Source of the DNA: Betaproteobacteria bacterium
Lineage (GTDB): Bacteria > Pseudomonadota > Gammaproteobacteria > Burkholderiales > SG8-39
Direction: 5' to 3'
DNA: 60,145 nt
Assembly (NCBI GenBank): GCA_947467435.1
Contig: CANIIA010000006.1
Location: 1-60,145 of the forward strand
Part shown: piece by piece, positions 33,469 through 49,184 of the stretch
Position numbering within the stretch: position 1 is the first letter of the stretch
How the letters are laid out: every line of letters starts with the position of its first letter
The notes under the pieces: model-generated
Database searches by the model: none
What the model was told of the DNA's origin: nothing
What the model saw: only the letters and a program-made list of their open reading frames with translations
Position numbers and translations under genes: made by a program

Positions 33469-33509
33469 CACTGAACGAATCTAAGGGGTAAAACTAAAAA
33501 ACGTCGTGC

Positions 33510-33544
33510 ATCTTACGACCACAATGATGACAAGCACATGACAG
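33510..33544 (-). promoter_or_regulatory. Pho box and -10 upstream of phoU
   Basis: Minus strand CTGTCAT-GTGC-TTGTCAT, 11 nt, TAAGAT; near-consensus PhoB box. Confidence 0.8.
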
Positions 33545-33616
33545 CGCAGTGACTTATTTCTTTCATATAGATAAGCTAACCTAACCGATTGCCCCCAGTT
33601 GCGTTGAGCTACGCCC

Positions 33617-35749
33617 ATGTCCGGACCGACCAAAAAAGTGCACGCCGCCACCGCGAGTCCGTTGGCGCACCACGAGCAATTTTTAAACCGCGAGCTCGGG
33701 CACCTGGCCTTTAATCGACGTGTACTGGCCCAAGCCGAAGACCCCAGCGTGCCGCTCCTTGAGCGACTGCGCTTTCTTACCATCGTGTCCTCAAACCTTG
33801 ATGAGTTTTTTGAGATTCGCGTGGCTGGCTTAAAAGAAAAAATCAAACATGGCATTCGCGAGACTGGTCCAGATGGGCATGATGCGGCTTGGGTCTACGC
33901 GAAAGTGAGCCACGATGTACGCCAACTGATCGACGCTCAATACAAATTACTCAACGACGTCTTATTACCTGCGCTTGAAACAGAGCAAATTTTCTTTCCA
34001 CGTCGGCAAGATTGGACCCCCACACAAAAACACTGGATTCGCGACTACTTTATGCGCGAAGTCTTGCCTGTACTCACGCCCATTGGGCTTGATCCAGCGC
34101 ATCCGTTTCCACGCGTCTTTAATAAAAGCCTAAATTTTGCTGTCGAACTTTCAGGTAAAGATGCCTTTGGACGTAATTCGGGCGCAGCCATTGTGCAAGC
34201 GCCGCGCGCACTGCCGCGCGTGATCCGTTTACCCTCGCAAAAAAATCATCGCTACGAATTTGTGTTTCTCTCTTCTGTCATGCACGACCACGTCGGCGAA
34301 TTGTTTTCAGGCATGCAGGTACAAGGCTGCTATCAGTTTCGAGTCACACGAAATTCTGATTTATTTGTCGATGAAGAAGAAGTCAAAGATATGCGTATCG
34401 CCTTACAAGGCGAATTACTCGAGCGGCATTTTGGCCACGCGGTGCGTCTAGAAGTGGCCGACAATTGCTCAGCGCGGATGGCAGAATTTTTATTAGCGCA
34501 ATTTGCTTTATCGGCGGATGATTTATACCGCGTTGATGGCCCGGTAAATTTATATCGCTTACGCGAAGTGCCCGATCAAGTCGATCGCCCCGAGCTCAAG
34601 TACCTCGAGTTCAAACCCGACTTACCTGCCAACTTAGATAACGCCGCAGATATTTTTGCGTGCTTACAGCAGCGCGACGTGTTGTTGCATCACCCCTACC
34701 AATCCTTTGCACCGGTCTTAAATTTTATTCGTGCCGCAGCCGAAGATCCGCAAGTCATTGCGATCAAACAAACGGTCTATCGCACCGGCACCGACTCCGA
34801 GCTGATGGAAACGCTGATCCAAGCAGCGCAATTTGGCAAAGAAGTCACCGTCGTGGTCGAACTCATGGCGCGCTTTGATGAAGAGGCCAATATCAATTGG
34901 GCCACCCGTTTAGAAGCCGTGGGCGCCCATGTGGTGTACGGCGTTGTCGGACACAAAACCCACGCCAAAATGGCCTTGATTGTGCGACGTGAAGAAGACG
35001 CCAATGGCAAAACCCACCTACGTCGTTATGTGCATTTAGGCACAGGCAATTACCACCCGCGCACGGCGCGTTTGTACACTGACTTTGGATTATTAACCGC
35101 CAATGAATCGATTTGTGCCGATGCCAACGATGTCTTCAAACAACTCACCGGGCTCGGACGCGCCGGTCGCTTAAAACATCTTTGGCAAGCGCCGTTCACT
35201 CTGCACAAGCGGATTTTGGCGGCAATCCACGCCGAAGCGCAAGCTGCTGCAAATGGTCAACCGGCACGCATCATCGCCAAGATGAACGCGCTGCTTGAAC
35301 CGCAAGTGATCCACGCGCTCTACGCGGCGTCACAAGCTGGCGTCAAGATTGATCTCATTGTGCGCGGCGTTTGTGCGCTACGGCCAGGCATTCCCGGACT
35401 GTCCGAAAACATCCGTGTCCGCTCGATCATTGGTCGTTTTCTTGAGCACTCGCGAATTTTTTATTTTCACGCCGCCGGTGAAGCGCACGTCTTTTTGGCC
35501 AGCGCCGATTGGATGGATCGCAACTTCTTCCGGCGAATCGAAATATGTTTTCCGGTATTAGATCCTGCGCTTAAACAACGCGTCATTCGTGAAGGGTTGG
35601 ATAGCGCGCTGGAGGACAACGTACAAGCATGGCTCATGAACCCCGATGGTCACTACGAGCGCAGCGTGACTCGCCGTGGCTCACGCCAACGGGCTACGCA
35701 ATCCGAACTACTTCAACTATTGGCACACTCCCCGCTCGCTTCCATTTAA
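33617..35749 (+). CDS. ppk1: Polyphosphate kinase 1
   Basis: NRELGHLAFNRRVL, SNLDEFFEIRVAGL, HHPYQSF, KTHAKM, IGRFLEHSRI, SADWMDRN. Confidence 0.97.
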   Translation: MSGPTKKVHAATASPLAHHEQFLNRELGHLAFNRRVLAQAEDPSVPLLERLRFLTIVSSNLDEFFEIRVAGLKEKIKHGIRETGPDGHDAAWVYAKVSHDVRQLIDAQYKLLNDVLLPALETEQIFFPRRQDWTPTQKHWIRDYFMREVLPVLTPIGLDPAHPFPRVFNKSLNFAVELSGKDAFGRNSGAAIVQAPRALPRVIRLPSQKNHRYEFVFLSSVMHDHVGELFSGMQVQGCYQFRVTRNSDLFVDEEEVKDMRIALQGELLERHFGHAVRLEVADNCSARMAEFLLAQFALSADDLYRVDGPVNLYRLREVPDQVDRPELKYLEFKPDLPANLDNAADIFACLQQRDVLLHHPYQSFAPVLNFIRAAAEDPQVIAIKQTVYRTGTDSELMETLIQAAQFGKEVTVVVELMARFDEEANINWATRLEAVGAHVVYGVVGHKTHAKMALIVRREEDANGKTHLRRYVHLGTGNYHPRTARLYTDFGLLTANESICADANDVFKQLTGLGRAGRLKHLWQAPFTLHKRILAAIHAEAQAAANGQPARIIAKMNALLEPQVIHALYAASQAGVKIDLIVRGVCALRPGIPGLSENIRVRSIIGRFLEHSRIFYFHAAGEAHVFLASADWMDRNFFRRIEICFPVLDPALKQRVIREGLDSALEDNVQAWLMNPDGHYERSVTRRGSRQRATQSELLQLLAHSPLASI

Positions 35750-35783: not shown

Positions 35784-36290
35784 ATGTCTACACCACCTGC
35801 CCCGATCAACGTTTTGTTTTTATGCACGCACAATTCAGCGCGCAGCATCTTGGCTGAAGCCTTACTCAATCATTTAGGCAATCCGCGCTTTCGGGCATTT
35901 TCTGCAGGAAGCAGCCCGCGCGATAATCAACAACCACATCCGATCGCGCTTCGTGTTTTACAAAACGCGGGGATCGACACCCATTCACTCTCCAGCAAAA
36001 GCTGGGACGCCTTCGCGCATGCCGATGCCCCGCACATGCATCTCATCATCACGGTCTGCGATAATGCCGCTGGTGAGGTGTGCCCGATTTGGCCTGGTCA
36101 CCCTGCGACTGCGCACTGGGGTTATGCCGATCCGAGTCAAACGACCGGATCTGCTGAGGATATTGAAGCTGCTTTTAGAAGCACCCTACATCTATTGCAT
36201 AAACGCTTAGAGAGCTTCATCAACTTACCTATCGAGTCCTTTGATCAACTGGCATTACAAACCCAAGCGCGATCCTTGAGTCACGTATGA
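35784..36290 (+). CDS. arsC: Arsenate reductase (LMW-PTP/thioredoxin type)
   Basis: VLFLCTHNSARS P-loop, SKSWD, TVCDNAAGEVCPIWPG, HWGYADP. Confidence 0.9.
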   Translation: MSTPPAPINVLFLCTHNSARSILAEALLNHLGNPRFRAFSAGSSPRDNQQPHPIALRVLQNAGIDTHSLSSKSWDAFAHADAPHMHLIITVCDNAAGEVCPIWPGHPATAHWGYADPSQTTGSAEDIEAAFRSTLHLLHKRLESFINLPIESFDQLALQTQARSLSHV

Positions 36291-36937
36291 ATACAAACAA
36301 AGCCATTGCTGCCGAATGGGTCGGCACCGCCGCATTACTTGCCGCGGTGATTGGCTCAGGCATCATGGCTGAACGCTTAAGCGCAGGAAACACCGGCGTT
36401 GCATTGCTTGCGAATACGCTTGCAACAGTCTTTGCTTTGTACGTGCTGATTGAAACCTTCGCACCCATCAGTGGCGCGCACTTTAATCCTGTGGTGACGA
36501 TGGTCATGGTTTGGCGCGGCAAACTCAGCCTCAAGCTGGGGCTTGGCTATGTATGCGCGCAACTGCTCGGTGCGGTATGCGGCGCGTGGCTTGCACACGC
36601 GATGTTTGATGTATCGCTGCTGCAGTTTTCGATAAAACACCGCAGTGGGCTGAGTCAGTGGATCGCCGAACTCGTTGCCACTGCGGGTCTGCTGTTTGTC
36701 ATCCTACGAGCCCCAACAAACAAAGCAGCGCCACTGGTGGCTTGTTACATTGGCGCAGCCTATTGGTTTACCGCCAGCACGTCGTTTGCAAATCCTGCGG
36801 CCGTCCTCGGTCGTCTGCTCACCGATTCGTTTGCTGGCATTGCGCCGATCGACGCGCCAGCATTTGTATTGGCGCAGTGTGTTGGGGCATTAATGGGTGT
36901 TGTCTTGTCAACACAACTAGCGACAGACTCAGATTAA
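36287..36937 (+). CDS. MIP/aquaporin family channel, AqpS-like arsenite channel
   Basis: GSGIMAERL, GAHFNPVVT, AYWFTASTSFANPA; ATGA-coupled to arsC. Confidence 0.88.
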   Translation: MNTNKAIAAEWVGTAALLAAVIGSGIMAERLSAGNTGVALLANTLATVFALYVLIETFAPISGAHFNPVVTMVMVWRGKLSLKLGLGYVCAQLLGAVCGAWLAHAMFDVSLLQFSIKHRSGLSQWIAELVATAGLLFVILRAPTNKAAPLVACYIGAAYWFTASTSFANPAAVLGRLLTDSFAGIAPIDAPAFVLAQCVGALMGVVLSTQLATDSD

Positions 36938-37704
36938 CTGGCCACGCCATGGTGTTTGGCATAGCGCAGCGTCAGCCGAGACATCGGTAAGAAAATAAAG
37001 AAATCCGCGGTATTAAATTCCGGATCCCAGGCCGGCGCACCACCAATCCAAGCACCGCTACGTAGGTAAGCTTTGATCAAGGCCGGAATTTGCGCTGCAC
37101 GTGATTGATCTAGCTGGTCGATCGGCAACGGCGTTCTCGGAAACACACCGTATTCAATCGGTGCCCGAAAAACATCTGGTAGTTGTGCATAGGCGGAAGC
37201 GGCACCATGTCCCCCATCCAACATACTCATGCTGGCACAACCGGCTAAATATCGAATATTTCTGTTACGCGCGTACTCCAAGATGGCCTGCCACAGCTGT
37301 GAGATCACCTTACCCGAGCGGTATTCTGGATGGACGCAAGCACGACCCAATTCCAACAGACCTTCTCGCAATAACTGCAATCGCGTCAGATCAAACTCAG
37401 CATCGGCGTAATAACAACCAATACGACGTGCATTTTGTGGCGATAACAATCGATATGTACCAACCACCTGATCTGTCTGCGTATCGCGCGCGATCAAGTG
37501 ATCACAATGCGGGTCAAAAATATCTTCATCGATGCCAAAGGTTTTTGAGGGCAACCTCGCACCCATCTCGTCTGAAAAAACGCGCCAACGCAGCGCTTGC
37601 GCTTCTGACAGCTCTCGTTGATTAGTCGTCAGCGAAACGCGAATCGTGCTGGTGTTCGATCGTGGAACTTCTCGTGAAAGTAAGCGCTCATCTAAACGAT
37701 CCAT
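36934..37704 (-). CDS. olsB: Ornithine N-acyltransferase OlsB-like (GNAT)
   Basis: AQALRWRVFSDEMGA, DIFDPHCDHL, VVGTYRLL, ELGRACVHPEYRSG, PALIKAYLR, DPEFNTAD. Confidence 0.85.
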   Translation of the reverse strand: MDRLDERLLSREVPRSNTSTIRVSLTTNQRELSEAQALRWRVFSDEMGARLPSKTFGIDEDIFDPHCDHLIARDTQTDQVVGTYRLLSPQNARRIGCYYADAEFDLTRLQLLREGLLELGRACVHPEYRSGKVISQLWQAILEYARNRNIRYLAGCASMSMLDGGHGAASAYAQLPDVFRAPIEYGVFPRTPLPIDQLDQSRAAQIPALIKAYLRSGAWIGGAPAWDPEFNTADFFIFLPMSRLTLRYAKHHGVAS

Positions 37705-37738: not shown

Positions 37739-37794
37739 AATGTAACCCGGCTTGATGACGTCACCATGACGAGGAAATGACGTCCACATGACAA
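37739..37794 (-). promoter_or_regulatory. Four-unit Pho-box array and -10 upstream of olsB
   Basis: Minus strand TTGTCAT-N4-ACGTCAT-N4-TCGTCAT-N4-ACGTCAT, 10 nt, TACATT. Confidence 0.85.
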
Positions 37795-37862: not shown

Positions 37863-38231
37863 ATGGAAAGTCCGTTCAAAGGTAAAACCGGTATCCGACG
37901 CCTCATTAATGCGGCCGGATACTCGCTGGCCGGTCTGTTAGCGGCCATTCGAAACGAAGATGCCTTTCGACAAGAACTTGCGCTGGCGATTGTTCTAATC
38001 CCACTTGGCTTGTGGTTTGGTCCGGGTGGATTAGCTAAAGCGGCATTGGTCGCAAGCGTACTGTTAGTACTGATCGTCGAGCTACTCAACTCCGCGGTTG
38101 AGGCTGCGGTCGACCATACCTCGCTTGACCGTCACCCGCTGGCACGTCGAGCTAAAGACATTGGTAGCGCAGCCGTCCTTGTTGCGCTGATGAATGTACT
38201 TGCCACCTGGACGCTGATTTTTTTCTTCTAA
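37863..38231 (+). CDS. dgkA: Diacylglycerol kinase
   Basis: GYSLAGL, EDAFRQEL, VELLNSAVEAAVD, AKDIGSAAV. Confidence 0.95.
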   Translation: MESPFKGKTGIRRLINAAGYSLAGLLAAIRNEDAFRQELALAIVLIPLGLWFGPGGLAKAALVASVLLVLIVELLNSAVEAAVDHTSLDRHPLARRAKDIGSAAVLVALMNVLATWTLIFFF

Positions 38232-38275: not shown

Positions 38276-38331
38276 CCGTCACACAAAATTCATCTAGCCG
38301 TAACCAGCTGTTCATCAGCGCCGTGCAAAGT
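38276..38331 (+). promoter_or_regulatory. Four-unit Pho-box array and -10 upstream of the GT4/PAP2/GT4 operon
   Basis: CCGTCAC-N4-AATTCAT-N4-CCGTAAC-N4-TGTTCAT, 10 nt, CAAAGT. Confidence 0.7.
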
Positions 38332-38338
38332 GGTGTCT

Positions 38339-39028
38339 GTGATCAGCCCTATCGACATTCGTGAATTTGGACAACCGCTTGTTCGTCTACGCGTCGCATT
38401 GGTGACCGACACCTATTCGCCTGACGAGCAATCTGTGGTGCATTCCATCGATCAGCTAATGTCAGGATTGCTCGAGCGAAACCACTGTGTGCAACTCATT
38501 CGTCCTGCGGGGGTTGCAATTGCAGCCGATGGTGAGCATCCCTTTGCAATGGGCACTCGTCTTAGCCTTTCCTTGCCCAAACATTTATCACTGGGTATTC
38601 CAGCGCGCCAACACCTGGTGCGCTACTGGGGTGCGCATCGACCTAATGTTGTACATATAGCGACCGAAGGAAAATTGGGCTGGTCTGCTTTGTCCGCAGC
38701 AAGGAAGTTACATATCCCTATAGCGACAGATCTGCGTACGCATTTTCTAAATACGCCAGCACATCAAGTGCTCCAATGGTTGTCTAAGCCAATTGCTAGC
38801 TATTTACGCAAATTTCATAACCGCGCGAACACCACTCTGGTGACGGATACAAAGATTGCCGCAGAACTTCGTGCGCTTGGCTTTACACACATCAGACCAA
38901 TCAACGACCAAGAGACAGACCGCGACTCCTCTTTTGTCACACCAGAGCGTCACGCAACGCTCTGCTACGAACGCGCACTACTGGATACCGCAAACCTCTC
39001 TCAACCATTCAATGCGTGGCAAACATGA
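38339..39028 (+). CDS. GT4 glycosyltransferase N-terminal domain only (truncated paralog, possibly degenerate)
   Basis: RVALVTDTYSP, VQLIRP, VVHIATEGKLGWSA, YLRKFHNR align with the downstream GT4; no C-terminal sugar-donor domain. Confidence 0.7.
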   Translation: MISPIDIREFGQPLVRLRVALVTDTYSPDEQSVVHSIDQLMSGLLERNHCVQLIRPAGVAIAADGEHPFAMGTRLSLSLPKHLSLGIPARQHLVRYWGAHRPNVVHIATEGKLGWSALSAARKLHIPIATDLRTHFLNTPAHQVLQWLSKPIASYLRKFHNRANTTLVTDTKIAAELRALGFTHIRPINDQETDRDSSFVTPERHATLCYERALLDTANLSQPFNAWQT

Positions 39029-39561
39029 CGCGGCTACAAAGCACCTTGCACCGCATACATTCACTAGATTTACATTGGTGTGTTCAGTTTAATGCGGCCT
39101 CTCGGCATCGGCTGATTCTGATTTTTTTTAAGTTAATTAGTCGATTAGGCAACGGTGTCTTTTGATATGCACTAATGATTGGGCTTCTGCTACATGATTC
39201 CGCGCATGAGTATGCGTTGGTGCTAAAGATGTTAATCACCGGTGCAATCACCACGTGCATTTATAAAATTCTAAAACACAAAACGTTACGACCCCGACCG
39301 TATCAAGTGCATCAGCATATTGCTGTGGGGGCTCCAGCACTGGATCAATTTAGTTTTCCATCCGGACACACGCTACATGCAGTCATGTTTTCAATTCTCG
39401 TTTGCGCTGCACATCCTGACTTCATCTTATCGCTTGGATCATTCAGCGTACTCGTTGCTATTTCACGCTTGGTGCTCGGCTTACATTACCCAAGTGACGT
39501 GCTGGCCGCCATCGGACTTGGCAGCTTGATTGGTTGCTTGGCGATAACGATTGTCCCCTAA
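39025..39561 (+). pseudogene. PAP2-family phosphatase interrupted by in-frame TGA (39163-39165)
   Basis: ATG 39025 overlaps the upstream stop; frame reads ...SRLGNGVF*YALMIG... then KHKTLRPRPY, SFPSGHTLH, SRLVLGLHYPSDV. Confidence 0.8.
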
Positions 39562-39568
39562 AGCACAC

Positions 39569-40852
39569 ATGACTGACGTGTTGTCACAAGCAATCGAGCG
39601 TACGGCTGCACCAAAGGGCTTGCGTATTGCTTTTGTGACAGAAACATTTGCCCCAGAAATTAATGGTGTCGCGATGACGGCAGGTCATTTTGTACGTGGC
39701 TTAAGACAGCGTGGCCACAACGTACAACTGATTCGACCAAAGCAGCGTCACGCACCATCATCAAACGATGATCCGAATACGGTATTGGTCAGCGGGCTTC
39801 CGATACCGAATTATCCGGGCTTGCAATTTGGCCTACCCTGCGCAAGCACATTACGTCGGCTATGGGTAGCGCAACGTCCAGATATTGTGCATGTTGTCAC
39901 TGAAGGTCCGCTCGGTTGGAGTGCGGTACGTGCCGCGCACAAACTCAATATTCCAGTGACTAGCGGTTTTCACACCAACTTTCATCGCTACACAGCGCAC
40001 TACGGGCTTGGCTGGATGCAGCATATAGTCAACGGATACCTACGCTACTTGCATAACCGAACCAAGTGCACGATGGTTCCTACCCGCGCGCTAGCGCTCG
40101 AATTAGATCGCCTGGGCTATCGCAACCTGTGCGTCGTTTCACGCGGCGTTGATACGCAGCTCTTCAACCCGTCGCGGCGCGACCCAGCGTTGCGAGCCCA
40201 GTGGGGGGTCAATGATCATGGCTTAGTTGTTTTATACGTCGGACGATTGGCCGCAGAAAAAAATATTCGTACCGTGCTGAATGCCTTTGCAGCCATACGC
40301 GCCTATCGTCGCGACGCTCGACTCGTGTTTGTTGGTGATGGACCACTAAGTGACAGATTAAAGAAACAGCAGCCGGATGCGATTTTTTGTGGGGTGCAGC
40401 GTGCGGAGGGTTTAGCGCAGCACTACGCGTCAGCTGATGTATTTTTATTTCCAAGCTTGTCTGAAACGTTTGGTAATGTCACCAGTGAAGCCATGGCCTC
40501 CGGATTGGGTATTGCTGCCTATCATCATGCAGCAGCGGGTGAGCTGATTACGCACAACGTGGATGGCTGCGTGGCAAGCCCAGGGGATGAACGTGCTTTT
40601 GTTGGAATGGCAGTCACACTTGCCAGTGAGGCGGGCCTATTAACTTCCATCCGATCTGCGGCGAGAGCACGCGCACTCTCATTAGATTGGGATCGTGTGA
40701 TCTATAGTTTTGAGCACGAGTTATTTGAAGCAATTCAACAGCAAGCACCGCAGTCTATTCAACACGACGCATTAGCGGCTGCCCCATGCGTAGCGCCGCC
40801 CCTGGCTGGTTTTCAGCGCACACAGCGTAGCCCTTGGGCGCGAAGACGATGA
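39569..40852 (+). CDS. GT4 glycosyltransferase, Agt-like glycolipid synthase
   Basis: VTETFAPEINGVA, TEGPLGW, SRGVD, YVGRLAAEKN, FPSLSETFGNV..EAMASG; context of P-free lipid genes. Confidence 0.85.
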   Translation: MTDVLSQAIERTAAPKGLRIAFVTETFAPEINGVAMTAGHFVRGLRQRGHNVQLIRPKQRHAPSSNDDPNTVLVSGLPIPNYPGLQFGLPCASTLRRLWVAQRPDIVHVVTEGPLGWSAVRAAHKLNIPVTSGFHTNFHRYTAHYGLGWMQHIVNGYLRYLHNRTKCTMVPTRALALELDRLGYRNLCVVSRGVDTQLFNPSRRDPALRAQWGVNDHGLVVLYVGRLAAEKNIRTVLNAFAAIRAYRRDARLVFVGDGPLSDRLKKQQPDAIFCGVQRAEGLAQHYASADVFLFPSLSETFGNVTSEAMASGLGIAAYHHAAAGELITHNVDGCVASPGDERAFVGMAVTLASEAGLLTSIRSAARARALSLDWDRVIYSFEHELFEAIQQQAPQSIQHDALAAAPCVAPPLAGFQRTQRSPWARRR

Positions 40853-41618
40853 TGGTAGATCCATGCTCAAACCACCCCATTTCTTCACCCCGTTTGTACG
40901 TAGTGTTGCACTCAATCTGATTTGGACCTTGATAACGTAAATGCAGCAAGGTATCCAAAAAATGCAAGCGGATACTCGCGACCAGAATCGCTGCAACGGG
41001 CACCATGACCAGTGGTGCGCCATCGGGCAAACGGGTTTGCACCACCGCACGTTCATTGCGACAAAACAATCGCTCCACGCGCTTCAGAGCAATCGGGTTG
41101 ACATTCCAAGTGTCTCCGGACACATACACCGTACGCTCGACATGCAAGTCGCTTGGCGCATGAAAGCGGTGATACATGCTCGATTTAATGCGCAAAGTGA
41201 CATAGGTACTGTCTCGACAGATCGAGACCAACTCCGGTGTCGGCAAGAGATCTTCCAGTGTGTAAGGAAAGCCCTTAGCTTGGTACAGCCGCGTGCCATC
41301 GACCAAGCCTTGCGCACCGACAATTGCATCGCACGGACTCACCAACACCGAACGGTCGGAATGAATCGGCCGAGCACTTGGTTTTAATTCACGGACAAAA
41401 CATGCATGCAAACTCGAAAAAGTCTGCACGCGAGATTCACTCAAGTCGAGATCGGCAAAGCAGCGCCAAATCGCAATGGATATTCGACAAAGCAATGGAT
41501 GTTCAATTTTGCTAAACCATCCCATCCACAAGGTCAACGCGCGCCGTGGAATTCGGTTTGTAAGCAAAAAATTTACATCTTCATTCAGTAATTGAAACAA
41601 CAATTTTAGTGTTCGCAT
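40755..41618 (-). CDS. psd: Phosphatidylserine decarboxylase family proenzyme
   Basis: FVRELKP.ARP, SPCDA, QAKG, YHRFHAP, LFCRNER, EMGWFEHGSTII autocleavage motif; ATG at 41618. Confidence 0.88.
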   Translation of the reverse strand: MRTLKLLFQLLNEDVNFLLTNRIPRRALTLWMGWFSKIEHPLLCRISIAIWRCFADLDLSESRVQTFSSLHACFVRELKPSARPIHSDRSVLVSPCDAIVGAQGLVDGTRLYQAKGFPYTLEDLLPTPELVSICRDSTYVTLRIKSSMYHRFHAPSDLHVERTVYVSGDTWNVNPIALKRVERLFCRNERAVVQTRLPDGAPLVMVPVAAILVASIRLHFLDTLLHLRYQGPNQIECNTTYKRGEEMGWFEHGSTIIVFAPKGYAVCAENQPGAALRMGQPLMRRVE

Positions 41619-41658
41619 CCGTGAATAAGCCCTATGTAGCACTCTGTAAGGAAACACC

Positions 41659-43368
41659 ATGACGATTGAGTTGATCGCCCAAACATTGAATACCATCGGC
41701 ACCAGCGGTACCGTACTGGGTCTGACTGCGGCAGCTGGCGCAGCGAGCCTGTTGCCCGCTGCGCAACAACGCATCGCGCTGTCGTTTGCCAAACACCCCT
41801 CCCTTGCAGGACATCCGCGCACTGCAAGGCGTATCGCACAACTGCTGCCGTATTACGCTTACGATGAACAAACGTTCTTTTCTTGCGATGACGCGCCCTT
41901 GTTGATTCAGGACAGGCGACGCGCTGGATTTGCAAGACTGCATGCGCTGTATCAAGAAAGATTTTCTAAAGGCATTAATGCAGCCAACCAACTGCGACAC
42001 GGATTGTCTGATCTGCAATTCACCTCGAACTACCGCGTGCCATTTCAATTTAGCCAACACGTAAAAACGCATTTGGCTGCTGGCCCTTTTGTACAATCTT
42101 CTGCGGGGGTCACCGTCAATGATCTTGACGGTAATTGTTTCTATGACCTGACCGGATCGTATGGCGTCAATCTGCTTGGCTACGATTTCTATAAAGCATG
42201 CATTGCTGAAGGTAGCGCGGCGGTCCAGACCCTCGGACCCGTACTGGGTGCTTACCATCCAATCGTTTTGGATAATGTGCAACGATTGCGCGCGATCTCT
42301 GGTTTGGATGAAGTGTCGTTCCACATGTCGGGGACCGAAGCCGTGATGCAAGCGGTTCGCTTGGCGCGATACCACACTGGCAAAACGCACTTGGTACGTT
42401 TTTGTGGCGCTTATCACGGCTGGTGGGGCGATGTGCAACCCGGCGTTGGCAATCCATCGACCGCCCGTGAAACATACACCCTGAGCGAAATGAGCAAGCG
42501 GACGTTGAATATTCTGCGTACGCGCTCCGATATTGCTTGCGTATTGGTCAATCCATTGCAGGCCTTGCATCCAAACCAAGCCGCGCCTGCGGATGGTTCG
42601 CTGATCGATGGCAGTCGTCGTGCTGAATTTCAACGTGACGGCTATACCGAGTGGCTGCGAGATTTGCGACAGATCTGTACCGAGCGGGGCATTGCGCTGA
42701 TTTTTGATGAGGTCTTTGTCGGTTTTCGTTTGGCTCGGGCAGGCGCGCAAGAGTACTTTGGCGTGCGTGCCGACATGGTGACGTACGGTAAAACTCTGGG
42801 GGGTGGATTGCCCGTTGGGGTGTTGTGTGGCGCGCATCAATGGATGCGTCGATTCAAAGATGATGCGCCTGCCGACATCTGCTTTGCACGAGGCACATTT
42901 AACGCCCACCCTTATGTGATGGGGACCATGAATCGCTTTTTGCAGTTTGTTGAAACAGAAGAAGCGCACGCGATGTACGCGGCAGATAACGATTTGTGGA
43001 ACGCGCGAGCCGCTGATCTGAATGCGCGGTTGATCAACGCACGTGTACCGGTCCAAGTGGCAAATATGGCCTCGATTTGGACGGTGTTGTACACACAACC
43101 GGGCCGCTACCACTGGATGCTGCAATATTATTTGCGTGCGCAAGGCTTGGCCCTTAGCTGGGTGGGGACCGGGCGATTGATCTTCAGTCTCAATTACACA
43201 AACGCAGACTTTAATGAAGTCGCAGAGCGCTTTGTGAACGCTTGTCGCGCAATGCAAGCCGATGGATGGTGGTGGAGCAACGCAAAGCTCACCAACAAAG
43301 CGATCCGGCGCCGTGTCTTAAAAGAATCGATACGGCACCGGTTAGGATGGTTTAACAGATCCGCTTAA
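41659..43368 (+). CDS. Class III PLP aminotransferase (HemL/GSA-aminomutase-like) with long hydrophobic N-terminal extension
   Basis: DLDGN.FYDL, SGTEAVMQAVRLAR, YHGWW, LIFDEVFVGFR, DMVTYGKTLGGGLPVG (PLP Lys), GTFNAHP. Confidence 0.88.
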   Translation: MTIELIAQTLNTIGTSGTVLGLTAAAGAASLLPAAQQRIALSFAKHPSLAGHPRTARRIAQLLPYYAYDEQTFFSCDDAPLLIQDRRRAGFARLHALYQERFSKGINAANQLRHGLSDLQFTSNYRVPFQFSQHVKTHLAAGPFVQSSAGVTVNDLDGNCFYDLTGSYGVNLLGYDFYKACIAEGSAAVQTLGPVLGAYHPIVLDNVQRLRAISGLDEVSFHMSGTEAVMQAVRLARYHTGKTHLVRFCGAYHGWWGDVQPGVGNPSTARETYTLSEMSKRTLNILRTRSDIACVLVNPLQALHPNQAAPADGSLIDGSRRAEFQRDGYTEWLRDLRQICTERGIALIFDEVFVGFRLARAGAQEYFGVRADMVTYGKTLGGGLPVGVLCGAHQWMRRFKDDAPADICFARGTFNAHPYVMGTMNRFLQFVETEEAHAMYAADNDLWNARAADLNARLINARVPVQVANMASIWTVLYTQPGRYHWMLQYYLRAQGLALSWVGTGRLIFSLNYTNADFNEVAERFVNACRAMQADGWWWSNAKLTNKAIRRRVLKESIRHRLGWFNRSA

Positions 43369-43973
43369 GCACCGTGACTTGCGTGATCCGGATCAATCAA
43401 CTGCCCTTGCAGTAGGTACAGCGGTGCCTTGCAATACAACTTTGCATCATGAAATGGGTCGGTCAAAATTTTAGTGCACCAAACCAAGCCAGCTTGCACA
43501 TCACGCAAGAAAAACAAATGCACTGTACGAAACAACAATCCACCAATGCCAATCCATAACCAAAGCAAACCAGTGTTATGAACAAACTCGGCTGGATTGC
43601 TATGCGGGGTCATTAATCCAAAAAAACCGGGCGCCACATACAACGCAAATGGTGACAGCGCCCAGATACTCATCAGTACGACTTTACGCTTTAAGTTATA
43701 GCCCACTTTAATTTCTTCTTTGTACGCATGCGTGGCACGATTAATATGGTCGTAGCCCTTCGGCTCAAAGAAAAAATGTCCGGCTTGGCGACTGGTCATC
43801 GACACTAGCCAAGCCAATACCGCAGCCAATGCTGGATCAATAAACAACAACACATAGGCACACAGAAAACTCACGGCACTCACCAAATGGAGCGACTGGT
43901 TGATGCGACTGTGATGATAGTACCGATGATCATCCCAACGTTGCTCGTGTAGCTCTGAAAAAAAACCACGCAT
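43365..43973 (-). CDS. Mpo1/DUF962-like membrane protein
   Basis: His motifs YYHHSRINQSLH and RQAGHFFFE plus about four TM segments. Confidence 0.65.
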   Translation of the reverse strand: MRGFFSELHEQRWDDHRYYHHSRINQSLHLVSAVSFLCAYVLLFIDPALAAVLAWLVSMTSRQAGHFFFEPKGYDHINRATHAYKEEIKVGYNLKRKVVLMSIWALSPFALYVAPGFFGLMTPHSNPAEFVHNTGLLWLWIGIGGLLFRTVHLFFLRDVQAGLVWCTKILTDPFHDAKLYCKAPLYLLQGQLIDPDHASHGA

Positions 43974-44004
43974 GATCTCTCCGCAATAGTGTGTGACATG
44001 ATTC

Positions 44005-44082
44005 AGCTTAGGGCAAAGGTATGACGCGAATGCGACAAGGCTGTTGCAAATTCAAGATGATTTGATGACACGACAAAGACAG
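44005..44082 (-). promoter_or_regulatory. Six-unit Pho-box-like array and -10 upstream of the Mpo1-like gene
   Basis: Minus strand CTGTCTT/GTGTCAT/TCATCTT/TTGCAAC/TTGTCGC/GCGTCAT at exact 11-bp period, 10 nt, TAAGCT. Confidence 0.7.
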
Positions 44083-44123
44083 CGCCGATCACCCGATGGG
44101 GGTGTTTCAGCGCGGTCGATGCA

Positions 44124-46346
44124 TCACACCCCGATCACGCCACCATCTTCGCGCGTGATCACAATGGTTGCAGAACGCGGGCGACCTGCTGGCCCATACC
44201 CCACATTGCCTGGCCATCGGCTTTGATAACTAAATTCCGCTGCACCACCAAGCGCGGGTGTGTCTTCACCCGGATGTTGAATATTGACGAAGAGTGCCTT
44301 GCCATCCGGCGATTCCGTCAGCCCAGTCACTTCAGCACCTTTGGGGGCAATTAAAAACCGACGTAAACGTGCTTCACCCAACAGCGCACCCACAAACGTC
44401 TCTTGTTTACCGTCACGTACCGCACCATCGACCCGCTGCTGGTTCATGGCCGCAGTTTTTCCACCATCGCCGACACGACCCGGCAGCGCTGCGAGCAACA
44501 TGCAATTGGTTTCATCAGTCATGGCGCCATCATCGGTTTGAATCCAACAGATGCCGGTAGCTTGACTAAACCACAAGCCATCGGGAGACGAAAAACTATT
44601 CTTGGCAGTTAACCCAGAGAGATTCGCCGCGCCCGCATCTTCTTCGGCACCAAAGACAAAAATATCCCAATAAAAATTTAATGCATGCGGCGCACCATCT
44701 TCACGGAACCGAATGATGTGCCCATTCGGATTACCTGACTGCTTCTTGCCATCTTGGTCGATGTAGGCGCGCGGGTTAGCCGCATTGACGTTATTCAGTG
44801 TGCGCGTGTTGTTGTTCGTCAGTGAAAAATAGACTTCACCATTGTGCGGATTTACCGCACCCCACTCAGGGCGATCCATAGGCGTCGCGCCAAGCGCATC
44901 TGCAGCCAGCCGAGTAAATACCAACACATCAGCTTGGCTTTGGAAGGCAAAGTTTTTTGCATGGGCGATGGCCGCTTGTTGCACGCTCATTTCAAGCCAC
45001 TGACCTTTGCCATCGGCGTCGAAACGCGCGACATACAAGGTACCTTCGTTCAAGTACTTGTCACCCGCTTGCATCCCACCACCCACATCACGTGGATCCC
45101 AAACCGCTGCTGTCACAAATTTGTAGATGTATTCGTTTCTTGAATCGCAGCCCATGTAAAACACCAGCGGCTGACCAGCGCGAGGAATGCTGCACACCGC
45201 AGCTTCATGCGCCAAACGTCCCAATGCAATACGTTTCGCAGGACGCTGATCTGGCGCTAACGGATCCATTTCGACCACATAGCCAAAGGTATTTTCTTCC
45301 TGACGAAAATCTTCTGTTGGACGATCACTGATTGCCGCCAAATTCCATCGAGAAAATCGATCATCTGTCGTTGACACGGTGTGCCAACCTTGGCTGCGCT
45401 CAGTTTTTTTGGACGATGACAAAGGCTCGGTCACCACGCCATAGCGTTTGCGTGCTTGCACTGTGCGCGCATCTGTTGCAGCGGCACCGGCAGACAGTTG
45501 AAAATAATTCGCCCAATTTTCTTCGCAAGATAAGTAGGTACCCCATGGAGTTTTTCCATGGCCACAGGGGTTTAACACACCGCGCGCCTGCCGACCCATC
45601 GGATCAAACCGCGTGACCATCAGCGCAAACACGTCGGCCTGTACTGCTTTGGGTGCTGCAATCCGCACTGGGCTTAGCGGGGTAACGCGCCGGTGATAAG
45701 TGGAATTTGCCACCATTTGCCAGCCAGCAGCAGAACGCACGATCTCCACCATCGACACACCGTGCAAATTAATTTCTTTCATCACCTCATCCAACGGACG
45801 CGTGCCAAGATCCCAATTACCGAACTGATGAAATTTTTTTCCGCTCACACCATTTGAGGTTTGACCATTGGGATGCAGAAAATGTGCATCTGCTGAGCTT
45901 TCGTGATTCACACAAAGCACTGCGCGTCCGGTATCCACCGAGGTGTAATGCCCCTTGGCGTCGATAAAGTACAGATCCATGCCATCGTGATGATCACCAA
46001 TGCGCCGAGACCAATCATCTTGCTCGGTGCCCACACTTGAAAAAGCACTCAATGACAGGTCAAGCGGATCACCGCTGGCATGCAAGACGGTGTATCGGTA
46101 ACCTGGCGGCAACACCACACGGTCTTCCAGGCTTTTGTCCAGGGATGAAAAGCCAAGTGCGTTGTTTGGTGCACCAGCCTCTTGGCCCAAGGTGGCACAT
46201 CCGGTCAGCACACTGGCCATACTGAGCCCGACACCACCACGCAAAATCTGTCGGCGCATCGGGCTGGATAAGCCTTGGGTGAGTACCGTTTGAAAATGGA
46301 TGTTGTCAGAGGGATTGAAATCATCATCTTGATCATGCTGAGACAC
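44124..46346 (-). CDS. phoX: PhoX-family alkaline phosphatase (Tat-exported, likely lipoprotein)
   Basis: RRQIL Tat motif, LTGC lipobox, GDHHDGM, VNHE, TPWGTYLSCEENW, GRLAHE, MDRPEW, SPDGL, IQTD, NIQHPGE; GGAG SD before GTG 46346. Confidence 0.93.
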   Translation of the reverse strand: MSQHDQDDDFNPSDNIHFQTVLTQGLSSPMRRQILRGGVGLSMASVLTGCATLGQEAGAPNNALGFSSLDKSLEDRVVLPPGYRYTVLHASGDPLDLSLSAFSSVGTEQDDWSRRIGDHHDGMDLYFIDAKGHYTSVDTGRAVLCVNHESSADAHFLHPNGQTSNGVSGKKFHQFGNWDLGTRPLDEVMKEINLHGVSMVEIVRSAAGWQMVANSTYHRRVTPLSPVRIAAPKAVQADVFALMVTRFDPMGRQARGVLNPCGHGKTPWGTYLSCEENWANYFQLSAGAAATDARTVQARKRYGVVTEPLSSSKKTERSQGWHTVSTTDDRFSRWNLAAISDRPTEDFRQEENTFGYVVEMDPLAPDQRPAKRIALGRLAHEAAVCSIPRAGQPLVFYMGCDSRNEYIYKFVTAAVWDPRDVGGGMQAGDKYLNEGTLYVARFDADGKGQWLEMSVQQAAIAHAKNFAFQSQADVLVFTRLAADALGATPMDRPEWGAVNPHNGEVYFSLTNNNTRTLNNVNAANPRAYIDQDGKKQSGNPNGHIIRFREDGAPHALNFYWDIFVFGAEEDAGAANLSGLTAKNSFSSPDGLWFSQATGICWIQTDDGAMTDETNCMLLAALPGRVGDGGKTAAMNQQRVDGAVRDGKQETFVGALLGEARLRRFLIAPKGAEVTGLTESPDGKALFVNIQHPGEDTPALGGAAEFSYQSRWPGNVGYGPAGRPRSATIVITREDGGVIGV

Positions 46347-47199
46347 GCGGACGCTCCACAGGTTTGTTCGACATAACGACTGGCACGGCGACTTCATGAA
46401 TGGGCTGAGAACTTGGCTCATCTAGTTCGAAGGGTATAGAAACTTGTTCAGGTGCAACCGTCTGTCGAATCAGTTGCATCTGGCCATCCATGTGTTCAAC
46501 AACGGCCGTACAACTATCCACCCAATCCCCACAATTTAAATATTGGATTCCTTCAAGCTCACGAATCGCGGGCGTATGAATATGCCCACAAATGACTCCA
46601 TCAAAACCTCGACTACGCACGTGATGGGCAATCGCTCCTTCATAGCCGGAAATAAAACTTGCGGCACCCTGCACGTTGCGCTTCGCGTAATCAGCGAGCG
46701 ACCAATGTCCTGCGATACGAAAGCGCCGACGCGTCCATGAAAGCACACGGTTTAAATGCAGCAACATAGTGTAGGACAAATCACCTAAGACCGATAACCA
46801 GCGTGCATAAGTTGTAATCTGATCATACTCGTCACCGTGAATGACCAAGTAGCGTTTGCCATCTGCCGCCACATGCACGACTTGACGCTCAATATAAATA
46901 GACCCAAACGCATGTTCAGTAAAGCGCCTTAGCGCCTCGTCATGATTACCTGGCACATAAATCACACGCGCGCCATGTCGTGCCGCGCGCAAAATCTTTT
47001 GAATGACCGTGTTGTGTTCTGGCGGCCAATAGATACCGCGCTTTAAGGCCCAGAAATCAATAATGTCACCCACGAGGTACAGCGTATCAAATTCGTAGTC
47101 ACGCAAAAATTGCAGCAGGCGGTTGGATTGGCAAGCACGCGTTCCTAGATGGATATCCGATAAAAAAACCGTGCGTACACGCTGTCGCGATTCAGTCAT
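46333..47199 (-). CDS. plcP: PlcP-like intracellular phospholipase C (LpxH-like metallophosphoesterase)
   Basis: FLSDIHLG, LYLVGDIID, PGNHDE, IHGD, CGHIH, NCGDWVDSCTA; co-located with btaAB. Confidence 0.85.
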   Translation of the reverse strand: MTESRQRVRTVFLSDIHLGTRACQSNRLLQFLRDYEFDTLYLVGDIIDFWALKRGIYWPPEHNTVIQKILRAARHGARVIYVPGNHDEALRRFTEHAFGSIYIERQVVHVAADGKRYLVIHGDEYDQITTYARWLSVLGDLSYTMLLHLNRVLSWTRRRFRIAGHWSLADYAKRNVQGAASFISGYEGAIAHHVRSRGFDGVICGHIHTPAIRELEGIQYLNCGDWVDSCTAVVEHMDGQMQLIRQTVAPEQVSIPFELDEPSSQPIHEVAVPVVMSNKPVERPRVSA

Positions 47200-47920
47200 G
47201 CGTGCCATCCTCTTTTTGACCGATAAATTGATACCAAGGCACACCCGAACCAAATAACCATGCGGTGTGCGCCATATGTTCATGTACAAGCATCGGCTGA
47301 AATACGTTGCGTAAATAAGGCAAGTGATCTGCACTAGGATGAACGCCATCATGACCAAACCAAAGCGGCCAAAACGCTCTGGTTAATACGCTATGTTGAC
47401 GTGCACCAGGTTCAGCGCAGCGGCGAGAGACATAAAAATCCACCACCCCAATCCGCCCTCCAGGGCGCAACATATTGAAGGCTGCATCTATCGCCTTAAA
47501 CCAATCCGGAATCATGGTCAGTGCGTAACTAAACAACACCACGTCAGCGGGTTGCGCTGGGCACCACGTGGTGACATCCGCTTCAATTATTTGCACGTTG
47601 GCATGCCCAGCGGCACGACGTTTGGCTTGATTGAGTAACGCAGGACATAAATCTACCAAGGTCACTTGCTCTAGGGTCGCAAGGGTCGGGTACAAATAAT
47701 CGAGACTCTTTCCTGTGCCGGCGCCGAGTTCGACAAACCGCTCGCCGGGTTTGAGTGCCAGCGCATCGACCAACGCTTGTCTGCCGTGTAAGAGCTGTTC
47801 TCTGCTTTGGTCGTACGCATTGGCTTGAGGTGCATAAAACGCGTTGAGCCGCTCAGCCAAACCAGGCGCACGTGATTGACCCCGCATTAACTGCCAAATC
47901 ACTGCGGCGCTGAGTCCCAC
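47192..47920 (-). CDS. btaB: SAM-dependent methyltransferase BtaB-like (betaine lipid)
   Basis: FYAPQA..YD..R..LLHGR, VELGAGTG, FSYALTMIPDW, GVVDFYV, WFGHDGV; directly after btaA. Confidence 0.85.
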   Translation of the reverse strand: MGLSAAVIWQLMRGQSRAPGLAERLNAFYAPQANAYDQSREQLLHGRQALVDALALKPGERFVELGAGTGKSLDYLYPTLATLEQVTLVDLCPALLNQAKRRAAGHANVQIIEADVTTWCPAQPADVVLFSYALTMIPDWFKAIDAAFNMLRPGGRIGVVDFYVSRRCAEPGARQHSVLTRAFWPLWFGHDGVHPSADHLPYLRNVFQPMLVHEHMAHTAWLFGSGVPWYQFIGQKEDGTHD

Positions 47921-47938: not shown

Positions 47939-49120
47939 TTAGGCAATACGTGCAATATGAAAACCAGCATAGGTATGCACGCGGTCTTCACGTTGCAATT
48001 GTTCAGCGCGTTCAACATCCAATTGCAGCAGCGAACGCAACGGACGATCTGCGCCTTTGCCGGGAACAAGGACCGTATCCAAAAATCCGGGATTAGCATG
48101 TGCGCTACGAAAAATAATACGGGCATCTTGACTGGCGCGTTTGAGAATCGCTGCCCATTCGCGACCTAACTCGCGCTCATTCACACTTGCCATCCAATCC
48201 ATATGATCAAGTAACACAAACCGCGTGATGGGCTGTTCACCTGACTCTAGAAAATCCGTCACCGTGGTTGTTGTGGTGTGAATGCGCTCAACGCCACCCG
48301 CTTTGAGTTTCGCAAAACCCTGCGAGGTTAAATACTCGGGGCAACAGTCTTGGGCATATGCCCCATGTAAATACAAACTCCAGAAATAATTACTCCGTGC
48401 TGGCAACTCACGAAACACCCAACCCAATGACTCACGCACAAATCCAGGCACACCGCCCTGATGCTGTCGACGGACTTCTTCATGTTGTGACACGGGCACC
48501 CCCAACAAACTCATGGTGAATTGTCGCGACAAGGCCCAATCCAAACTCCCGTTCCACATCGCAGGTTCAACGCGCGTATCGTAAATTTTTCGTTGCGCCG
48601 CCAAGTTCGGCGCGGCAAACAGTTCGTTCAGTGCTTCACGTAATCGCGGTCGAAACGCTAACCACCCACGAAATGCACGTGCCACGAGTCCTGATAACCC
48701 GTGACCATACAAACCCGGTGCGCCGCTCATCCAATGTGCATGCCGCCGCCAGTACTGCGCTGCATACGGCGAGAGGTGCGGGGCAAGCGCCTGGTGATAC
48801 ATCGCGCGAAATTGCGGATGCCAGCCTCGCCCAAACAGCGAAAAGAAATCTTCGTACTCAAGCCCACGAATCCCAGCGAGCTTTAATTCAAGCAATGCGT
48901 TCTGACGTGGATTGGCATCCACGGCATCGACATGCCCTGCCCCTGCCAGCACGTAATCGAGGGCGTTACAACCGGCACTGGTGATGACCAACACGCGATC
49001 TGCTTCGCTCAGCGCAAGCGCCTGACGATCTACCGCTGGATCTTCCCAGCACGCGTTATAAATTAAGTTGCGCGCATACAGCGCATCGAAGATCTTTTGG
49101 TTTAAATTGTTTTTAAGCAT
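47939..49120 (-). CDS. btaA: BtaA (DUF3419) SAM:diacylglycerol 3-amino-3-carboxypropyl transferase
   Basis: LIYNACWEDPAVD, ITSAGCNALDY, VDANPRQNALLELK, NYFW, CPEYL, LLDHMDW, DRVHTY. Confidence 0.9.
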   Translation of the reverse strand: MLKNNLNQKIFDALYARNLIYNACWEDPAVDRQALALSEADRVLVITSAGCNALDYVLAGAGHVDAVDANPRQNALLELKLAGIRGLEYEDFFSLFGRGWHPQFRAMYHQALAPHLSPYAAQYWRRHAHWMSGAPGLYGHGLSGLVARAFRGWLAFRPRLREALNELFAAPNLAAQRKIYDTRVEPAMWNGSLDWALSRQFTMSLLGVPVSQHEEVRRQHQGGVPGFVRESLGWVFRELPARSNYFWSLYLHGAYAQDCCPEYLTSQGFAKLKAGGVERIHTTTTTVTDFLESGEQPITRFVLLDHMDWMASVNERELGREWAAILKRASQDARIIFRSAHANPGFLDTVLVPGKGADRPLRSLLQLDVERAEQLQREDRVHTYAGFHIARIA

Positions 49121-49128
49121 GGGAACAC

Positions 49129-49184
49129 AGTTTCCCTGCTTTAGATGACACGACAGTGACCGTATCGTGACAGCGATGTGACGA
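49129..49184 (-). promoter_or_regulatory. Four-unit Pho-box array and -10 upstream of btaA
   Basis: Minus strand TCGTCAC-N4-CTGTCAC-N4-CGGTCAC-N4-GTGTCAT, 10 nt, GAAACT. Confidence 0.85.

Follow-up and report, generated by a model that had tools for sequence, protein, structure and literature searches.

A conserved set of a second psd-like gene, a class III aminotransferase gene and an Mpo1-like gene as a candidate tailoring unit for phosphorus-free membrane lipids

Introduction

What would a second gene of the phosphatidylserine decarboxylase family, a class III aminotransferase gene and the gene of a small Mpo1-like membrane protein be doing side by side in a bacterial phosphate-starvation island? 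The question is raised by a stretch of 60,145 nt (the window, by which we mean the whole stretch of DNA analysed) from a Betaproteobacteria bacterium (GTDB Burkholderiales; SG8-39; assembly GCA_947467435.1, contig CANIIA010000006.1), about 33-52 kb of which is such an island by its gene content in Pfam and NCBIfam scans. The three genes, here called the triad, are psd2 (product PSD2, 287 aa; 40755-41618, minus strand; PF02666 and TIGR00163), the gene of a HemL/MycA-AMT-like class III aminotransferase (AT, 569 aa; 41659-43368, plus strand; PF00202) and that of Mpo1L, a DUF962/Mpo1-like membrane protein of 202 aa (43365-43973, minus strand; PF06127 below threshold). Phospholipid replacement is a main survival route of bacteria and algae under phosphate scarcity; betaine lipids, aminolipids of the ornithine type and glycolipids, either neutral or anionic, are known as substitutes.

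A preliminary description of this DNA had placed the triad between a glycosyltransferase gene and phoX-plcP-btaBA, with psd and the aminotransferase gene diverging across 40 bp and the latter converging with the Mpo1-like gene on a TTAA. The coordinates and the flanking genes, as assigned with Pfam, agree with this: the gap read from the sequence (41619-41658) is exactly 40 bp, and the stop codons of AT and Mpo1L converge so that the TTAA at 43365-43368 is common to both. The psd-like open reading frame (ORF) spans 40755-41822, and the start conserved in relatives is the ATG at 41618. We propose, giving the idea about an even chance and arguing from sequence comparison, that the triad carries out the tailoring within a membrane-lipid module for phosphate starvation, one that yields an amine-bearing lipid free of phosphorus (P-free).

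Results

The triad is kept together far beyond the window. With AT as query, GTDB species genomes yielded at least 597 relatives, from which 80 loci were retained, and partner genes in these loci were identified by tblastn with the window's proteins. The loci come mostly from Burkholderiales, and also from Xanthobacteraceae, Acetobacteraceae, Steroidobacteraceae, Marinobacter, Paraglaciecola and a Planctomycetota metagenome-assembled genome (MAG). Named cultured carriers from the AT search include Variovorax sp. OV329, Rhodoferax ferrireducens BE313, Dechloromonas sp. H13, Pseudorhodoferax aquiterrae, Aquincola agrisoli and Marinobacter sp. F3R11. PSD2 was found in 75 of them and Mpo1L in 76, mostly in the divergent/convergent layout of the window, and the loci without one or the other are short contigs or have AT at a contig end. 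The window's order was sampled with 250 genomes of 90% completeness or more. In this sample the distribution of AT is patchy, with 26 carrier genomes in 20 of 130 genera (a tally that includes G000). PSD2 adjoins AT in all 26 carriers and Mpo1L does so in 25, the single miss having AT at base 82 of its contig; Mpo1L itself occurs in 27 of the 250 genomes, and the 2 without AT are partial matches. The arrangement of the triad is far beyond chance. The preliminary description had asked whether the three families co-occur, and they do, together with a GT4 glycosyltransferase and PlcP. A complex prediction for AT and Mpo1L scored 0.00, which counts neither for nor against the unit.

Among the 80 loci, GT4 was present in 61, PlcP in 28, a BtaB-like methyltransferase in 8 and an OlsB-like gene in 5, while PhoX (4), ppk (2), BtaA, PAP2 and SpoT (1 each) are rare partners. 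Clustering of neighbourhood ORFs, which is partly polluted by antisense ORFs of GC-rich genomes, recovered as recurrent beyond the module a major facilitator superfamily (MFS) transporter (16 loci), a methyltransferase (12), an ABC ATPase (8) and a response regulator (7). At genome level, PlcP was found in 23 of the 26 carriers and in 98 of the 224 non-carriers, a comparison to which no significance test was applied because the genomes are related to one another. The GT4 enzymes of carrier genomes fall into two classes: those 47-55% identical to that of the window lie beside the triad, and those 35-38% identical to it, of about 340-380 aa, lie beside plcP as the classical plcP-agt pair. The window GT4 (class A; 39551-40852, plus strand; Pfam GT4/GT1 domains) belongs to the triad-adjacent class, and its genome otherwise has an N-domain fragment only.

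Gene fusions join the same set of partners. Long Mpo1L homologues formed 36 clusters, of which 16 carry a S-adenosylmethionine (SAM)-methyltransferase domain, 2 a PSD and 1 a GT4, and the PF06127 scores of the fusion proteins lie at 15-21 bits. One long AT homologue, P0038, reads GT4 (residues 29-398), AT (454-965) and Mpo1L (981-1148). A metagenome scan with this protein returned 14 loci, and GT4, AT and Mpo1L are collinear in 7; in one, L096, GT4 is a separate ORF and AT and Mpo1L form a single ORF of 737 aa. PlcP directly precedes the GT4-AT-Mpo1L set in 3 of the 7, and PSD2 was found in none of the 7 (flanks are short in some), which points to a PSD-less core of (PlcP)-GT4-AT-Mpo1L, with PSD2 as an added step in the window's clade.

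The joining of a glycosyltransferase to AT extends to eukaryotes. Thirteen eukaryotic proteins of 1122-1296 aa, from Euglena gracilis, E. mutabilis, Bigelowiella natans, Partenskyella glossopodia and a picozoan, match 85-96% of AT at 40-46% identity. These proteins of euglenids, chlorarachniophytes and a picozoan (P0037 and P0039-P0050, about 1250 aa) combine a GT2-like domain, a membrane region and AT. Their N-terminal half is conserved, matches PF00535 below threshold in 2 of 13, and has protein-language-model neighbours at 0.97-0.98, the ten best of which are all GT2; judged from sequence, it looks like a GT2 glycosyltransferase. The GT4 fusion in bacteria and the GT2-like fusion in eukaryotes suggest that the joining of glycosyltransferase and AT arose in two architectures. 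An alignment of Mpo1L with the Euglena fusion protein by hhalign gave no match (probability 0.2%) and hence no support for an Mpo1L part in the eukaryotic proteins.

Methyltransferases are the second recurrent association. The methyltransferase fused or adjacent to Mpo1L has the phospholipid N-methyltransferase PmtA as its best match by a wide margin (137.2 and 111.9 bits, both below the equivalog cut-off), and a PmtA-like methyltransferase is adjacent to the module in 12 of the 80 loci. Nine of the fused-type metagenome loci continue beyond Mpo1L, and in 6 of these a gene of the PEMT family (PF04191) comes next; such membrane methyltransferases stand directly after the module at L096:9359-9937 and, in a gammaproteobacterial MAG, at L040:6633-7118. 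The strongest hint at a product with a primary amine like that of phosphatidylethanolamine (PE) is this recurrence of lipid-amine methyltransferases from two families that are unrelated to each other.

AT scores 111.8 bits against PF00202 (cut-off 30.5), which places it in the class III fold, and it falls far short of the HemL equivalogs (TIGR00713, 158.2 against 527.3 bits; NF000818, 163.5 against 398). Its closest solved chain is 6KFM, the MycA AMT domain (158 bits), followed by glutamate-1-semialdehyde (GSA) aminomutases at 120 bits or less. All 42 AT sequences share the lysine for pyridoxal phosphate (PLP), Lys378 in YGKTLGGG, as well as Asp350. A conserved N-terminal extension of about 140 aa reaches a maximum Kyte-Doolittle value of 1.42 over 19 residues, and 21 of the 42 relatives reach 1.6. 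Of the membrane-anchored PLP enzyme that had been described, the PLP enzyme thus stands, and the anchor is weakly hydrophobic in the window copy.

Mpo1L matches PF06127 over residues 10-70 at 21.8 bits (E = 2e-4), below the gathering threshold of 24, and its protein-atlas neighbours carry the DUF962 name. Its AlphaFold2 model (pLDDT 90) has about four long hydrophobic helices, and Foldseek found no match for it in the PDB at E ≤ 0.001. Across classes, the subfamily in the aligned bacterial genome loci is 53-73% identical. His16, His20, His29, His66, Glu70 and Asp172 are conserved at 90% or more, and His175 and Asp176 of the motif TDPFHD are conserved as well. The N-terminal helix, the end of helix 2 and the C-terminal helix carry the conserved His, Asp and Glu residues; these would face the cytoplasmic membrane surface, where a metal site is probable. 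The histidines of Mpo1 are metal ligands. The preliminary description had called the protein a His-metal membrane oxidase of Mpo1 type: by sequence and model it looks like a His-rich membrane protein, with a family score that stays under the threshold.

PSD2 passes both family cut-offs, with 170.6 bits for PF02666 (cut-off 22) and 149.1 bits for TIGR00163 (cut-off 111.75), and aligns with E. coli PSD (7CNW/6L06) at 98 bits. Asp97, His150 and Gly253-Ser254-Thr255, the equivalents of E. coli D90, H144 and S254, are invariant in 76 of 76 PSD2 sequences. According to a study of E. coli PSD, the phosphate of PE is bound by Tyr137, Ser166 and the amide of Val167 (PMC7952604). All 76 PSD2 sequences have Arg143 and Asn172 where E. 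coli has Tyr137 and Ser166, and the canonical long PSDs of carrier genomes retain the Tyr and the Ser (n = 4 of 9 fetched sequences, the 5 in an antisense frame having been dropped). These substitutions indicate a pocket that is systematically altered at the phosphate position; PSD2 thus keeps its catalytic residues and has an altered head-group pocket. PSD2 is an extra copy: each of the 26 carriers has exactly two PF02666 matches, so that it is never the sole psd of the genome, and it is not paired with a phosphatidylserine synthase gene. The window genome likewise has two PF02666 genes, and the other one, on contig C89, lies between the gene of ketol-acid reductoisomerase (KARI) and a CDP-alcohol phosphatidyltransferase gene, with an HMGL-like gene next; by its neighbours, it reads as the psd of the housekeeping psd-pssA pair.

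Signs of phosphate control surround the triad. The window has 9 exact matches to the pattern GTCAY-N6-GTCAY, which was picked after the dgkA array had been seen by eye; the expected number is 0.49, and none of 100 shuffles comes to 9. Eight of the 9 form three Pho-box arrays of 3-4 half-sites with 11-bp spacing, all on the minus strand: between phoU and ppk (33527-33553), between the OlsB-like gene and the dgkA-GT4 fragment-PAP2-GT4 string (four half-sites, 37755-37792), and 25-62 bp upstream of btaA (four half-sites, 49145-49182). The arrays other than that of dgkA are independent matches. The last one heads the btaA-btaB-plcP-phoX(-Mpo1L) string on the minus strand. The PlcP-type gene (46333-47358, minus strand; Metallophos domain, LpxH-like similarity) follows this btaA array and GT4 lies downstream of the dgkA array, so that a PlcP-type phosphoesterase and a lipid GT4 both stand behind Pho-box arrays, as in a PlcP-Agt system. 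The phoX-Mpo1L spacer contains, upstream of Mpo1L at 44019-44082 (minus strand), two weak Pho-box-like pairs with one mismatch to the same pattern (44065-44080 and 44021-44036), and its sequence shows a TAAGCT hexamer resembling a -10 element. In relatives, repeats like CTGTCAA-N4-CTGTTAA often abut the psd start at the psd/AT junction; with a consensus read by eye from these sequences, 32 of 69 junction regions score 10 or more out of 15, compared with 78 of 1380 shuffled ones. The pattern TGTMA-N6-TGTMA was uninformative (1 match, 0.37 expected), and nothing decisive came from scanning 40400-44300 for sigma-70 sites and terminators, where promoter-like sites were absent. DNA of the host occurs in sequencing runs of 14 studies, as that of a common freshwater/estuarine bacterium; no RNA run was among the runs containing the stretch.

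Taken together, the conservation, the fusions, the linkage to PlcP and GT4 and the Pho-box-like sites in relatives support the view, already put forward in the preliminary description, that the three genes are one functional unit tied to phosphate-starvation lipid remodelling. Its statement that they have no established role in lipid remodelling agrees with the literature searched, in which no description uniting psd2, AT and Mpo1L was found. The accessible parts of two studies of phosphate (Pi) limitation mention none of the three genes; their supplements (Burkholderia proteomics), which possibly list such proteins, lay outside the search.

The rest of the island was assigned with Pfam and NCBIfam. 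It begins with phoU (32752-33471, minus strand) and ppk (33617-35749, plus strand), after which come genes of a low-molecular-weight (LMW) phosphatase and a MIP channel (35784-36937, plus strand); the phosphatase is ArsC-like or a protein tyrosine phosphatase (PTP), and the two may be an arsenate-related pair within the Pho island. An OlsB-like N-acyltransferase gene (36934-37704, minus strand) and dgkA (37863-38231, plus strand; PF01219) are followed by the GT4 N-domain fragment (38330-39028, plus strand). This ORF encodes the N-terminal (acceptor) domain alone, 38% identical to the full GT4 downstream, and is probably the remnant of a second lipid glycosyltransferase beside dgkA. A PAP2 phosphatase gene (39016-39561, plus strand) is interrupted in frame by the TGA at 39163-39165. 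Translation across this codon yields a protein of 181 aa in which the PAP2_3 match spans the stop, and the interruption could reflect a pseudogene, an assembly error or read-through. The 3' ends of GT4 and psd2 overlap by 98 bp (40755-40852) if the long GT4 ORF is real; the GT4 tail past about residue 400 is unmatched in relatives, so the actual stop or frame may differ there. On the far side of the triad lie phoX (44124-46421), the PlcP-type gene, a BtaB-type methyltransferase gene (47192-47920) and btaA (BtaA/DUF3419; 47939-49120), all on the minus strand, and spoT beyond btaA closes the gene order.

Discussion

Our results indicate that psd2, AT and Mpo1L are one unit, that this unit is linked to GT4 and PlcP and not to BtaA, and that PSD2 is an additional copy. 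A pathway can be drawn from these parts. PlcP, the presumed supplier of diacylglycerol, would remove the phospho-head group from phospholipids, and the GT4 of the module would add a sugar, possibly a uronic acid, to the diacylglycerol (DAG) so released. Mpo1L may then oxidise the sugar head group to a carbonyl, which the membrane-associated AT would turn into an amine, and PSD2, as a pyruvoyl decarboxylase, would take off the carboxylate adjacent to the amine. This would leave a P-free lipid with a primary-amine head group that substitutes for PE, and in other lineages a lipid N-methyltransferase may methylate this amine lipid to one resembling phosphatidylcholine (PC). What we infer here is in which order the steps run, that Mpo1L is the oxidase, which sugar is used and which carbon bears amine and carboxylate. 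The preliminary description had pointed to a decarboxylase, a PLP enzyme and a metal oxidase as the chemistry for remodelling an amino-acid-type head group; that idea still fits and is strengthened by the PSD2 pocket and by the N-methyltransferases. According to a study of Burkholderia cenocepacia, a tentative keto-glucuronosyl-DAG appears under Pi stress in dependence on plcP and agt, and agt alone in E. coli gives none (PMC13691135), which suggests that the order does contain an oxidised glycolipid of such a type.

Several points weigh against this pathway. PSD2 exceeds the TIGR00163 cut-off for phosphatidylserine (PS) decarboxylases and could still act on PS. A pyruvoyl decarboxylase needs amine and carboxyl group on one carbon; pyranosyl uronic acids have this carbon within the ring, which leaves the chemistry unreconciled with glucuronosyl-DAG. 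With a sub-threshold Pfam score and no solved relative, the oxidase role of Mpo1L rests on a weak resemblance and on its conserved His, Asp and Glu residues. The compared genomes are mutually related, so the enrichment figures overstate independence. The 40-bp psd2/AT gap of the window itself has no Pho-box match, and the junction consensus in relatives came by eye from the very sequences that were scored. A route in the manner of Arn, by way of 4-keto-glucuronic acid, decarboxylation and 4-amination, was considered and set aside: it leaves PSD2 unexplained, since the amine must sit on the carboxyl-bearing carbon.

A bolder form of the proposal, which we put forward tentatively and consider somewhat more apt to fail than to hold, is that the module makes a new lipid class. 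Here a glycolipid head group would be oxidised, aminated and decarboxylated to an ethanolamine-like amine, and N-methylated to a choline-like one where PmtA-like or PEMT partners are present; the class would be widespread in freshwater, soil and marine Proteobacteria, with a related glycosyltransferase-aminotransferase in euglenids, chlorarachniophytes and picozoans.

Phospholipid head-group salvage is the first alternative to be weighed. PSD2 would then be a genuine, starvation-induced PS decarboxylase, the PLP enzyme would deaminate PE or phosphoethanolamine (some enzymes of the class III fold are phospho-lyases), and Mpo1L would oxidise the remnant, so that phosphate and nitrogen are recovered and no new lipid is made. 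The equivalog score of PSD2 agrees with this, the Arg in its pocket could bind phosphate, and the module co-occurs with PlcP and adjoins PhoX. However, salvage accounts neither for the glycosyltransferase fusions in bacteria and eukaryotes nor for the lipid N-methyltransferases of two families next to or fused with the module; every carrier already has a housekeeping psd, and both phosphate-contact residues are replaced in PSD2 whereas the housekeeping PSDs of the same genomes keep them. We regard salvage as unlikely.

A little less probable still, in our judgement, is an envelope glycoconjugate (lipid A, the lipopolysaccharide core or a polyprenol-linked sugar) as the acceptor, given an amino sugar in an Arn-like way when lipid A phosphates are removed. 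A PAP2 gene does lie between the two GT4 genes of the window, and a set of oxidase, decarboxylase, aminotransferase and glycosyltransferase would parallel ArnA/ArnB/ArnC. Yet PAP2 is present in 1 of the 80 loci and carries the in-frame TGA in the window, and the neighbourhood clustering found no ArnT-like or flippase gene. The recurrent partner PlcP, moreover, makes diacylglycerol and stands immediately before the fused form in 3 of 7 loci, and the PmtA/PEMT-type partners are enzymes of lipid head groups.

The reading offered in the preliminary description was that the triad takes its substrates from BtaA and BtaB, decarboxylating diacylglyceryl-homoserine (DGHS) to a P-free PE analogue or rearranging towards a lipid like diacylglyceryl hydroxymethyltrimethyl-β-alanine (DGTA). 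In the window btaA-btaB lie 3-5 kb away, on the strand of Mpo1L and behind a Pho-box array; in G191, of the same genus, btaA and plcP abut psd2; and DGHS, as an O-substituted alpha-amino acid, would suit a PSD-type enzyme. Nevertheless, BtaA is present in 1 of the 80 loci and PF11899 in 3 of the 26 carrier genomes (93-100% complete), which indicates that the bta adjacency is local to the genus (G191 included) and not a feature of the module. The same counts speak against the supply of DGHS or its methylated product diacylglyceryl trimethylhomoserine (DGTS), against the DGTA-like rearrangement and against the expected co-occurrence with btaA. The constant and fusion partners are glycosyltransferases, and DGHS has no anionic group to explain the invariant Arg143. 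We therefore hold this reading to be very improbable. In genome G213 there is a weak, apparently split DUF3419 match 1-2 kb from the triad (G213:C1:2673461-2674408), possibly a divergent paralogue of BtaA type that this lineage has tied to the module.

The algal betaine lipid diacylglyceryl carboxyhydroxymethylcholine (DGCC), whose carboxy-acetal linker would suit both the Arg in PSD2 and a series resembling PS to PE to PC, was tried as the product and rejected, as distribution lends it no support; no haptophytes appeared among the long AT homologues. A lipidome of nine algae gives Euglena gracilis with glucuronosyldiacylglycerol (GlcADG) and DGTS/DGTA and without DGCC (PMC6630716, Table 1), and chlorarachniophytes are cited for DGTS in another source (PMC8752610).

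That the three genes are chance neighbours (a spare psd, a stray aminotransferase and an unrelated small membrane protein), as their alternating strands might suggest by showing that they are not one operon, is hardly credible and already contradicted by content and orientation kept in 75-76 of 80 loci over several classes and phyla, by strict co-occurrence at genome level and by the existence of fusion proteins.

If the proposed amine-bearing glycolipid route is correct, it would supply the PE-like surrogate, zwitterionic or cationic, that is missing among the known phospholipid substitutes, and it could explain unassigned nitrogen-containing lipids in environmental lipidomes. A bacterial DUF962/Mpo1-like protein would thereby gain its first function, as would a PSD paralogue whose pocket is not one for phosphate, and the new lipid class would repeat the PS to PE to PC series on a sugar basis. 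AT is found in at least 597 species genomes and in 26 of the 250 sampled genomes of the order.

The proposed module shares parts with several known systems. PlcP-Agt-type systems are known from Sinorhizobium, Agrobacterium, SAR11 and P. aeruginosa as well. The plcP-agt-dagK genes of B. cenocepacia share with the window a phosphate-starvation context and P-free glycolipid products (PMC13691135). A PlcP-type phosphoesterase, a GT4 and dgkA are all there in the window. However, the PlcP-Agt(-DagK) system ends at monoglycosyl- or glucuronic acid-diacylglycerol (MGDG/GADG), and the window adds an oxidase-like protein, an aminotransferase, a decarboxylase and a distinct class of GT4. In the PssA-Psd-PmtA/PEMT series (PS to PE to PC), PSD2 has a clear homologue, with autocleavage and pyruvoyl apparatus intact, and PmtA-like or PEMT methyltransferases likewise accompany the module in other lineages. 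In contrast to that series, PSD2 is a second copy without pssA pairing and with Arg and Asn for Tyr137 and Ser166, and the amino-acid head group of the module would come via an aminotransferase and not by serine transfer. The BtaA/BtaB route to DGTS, whose genes are neighbours in the window, resembles the proposal in placing a P-free amino-acid-type head group on diacylglycerol and then N-methylating it, but it has no enzymes in common with the triad, and BtaA is absent from 23 of 26 carriers.

For the single proteins, the best-scoring solved relatives of AT are MycA AMT (6KFM/6KFU) and the GSA aminomutases, with the same PLP lysine motif. MycA AMT acts on a lipid-linked keto substrate. Unlike MycA AMT, AT is free-standing or fused to Mpo1L or GT4, is not part of a polyketide or non-ribosomal peptide synthase (PKS/NRPS) and has the N-terminal extension of about 140 aa; unlike HemL, it lies far below the HemL cut-offs. 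Yeast Mpo1 is an Fe2+-dependent dioxygenase of 2-hydroxy fatty acids. Like yeast Mpo1 and the DUF962 family, Mpo1L is small and predicted to be a polytopic membrane protein, and it matches PF06127 weakly over its His-containing N-terminal region; unlike the yeast protein it forms its own conserved subfamily, fused in some of its members to a methyltransferase, GT4, PSD or AT.

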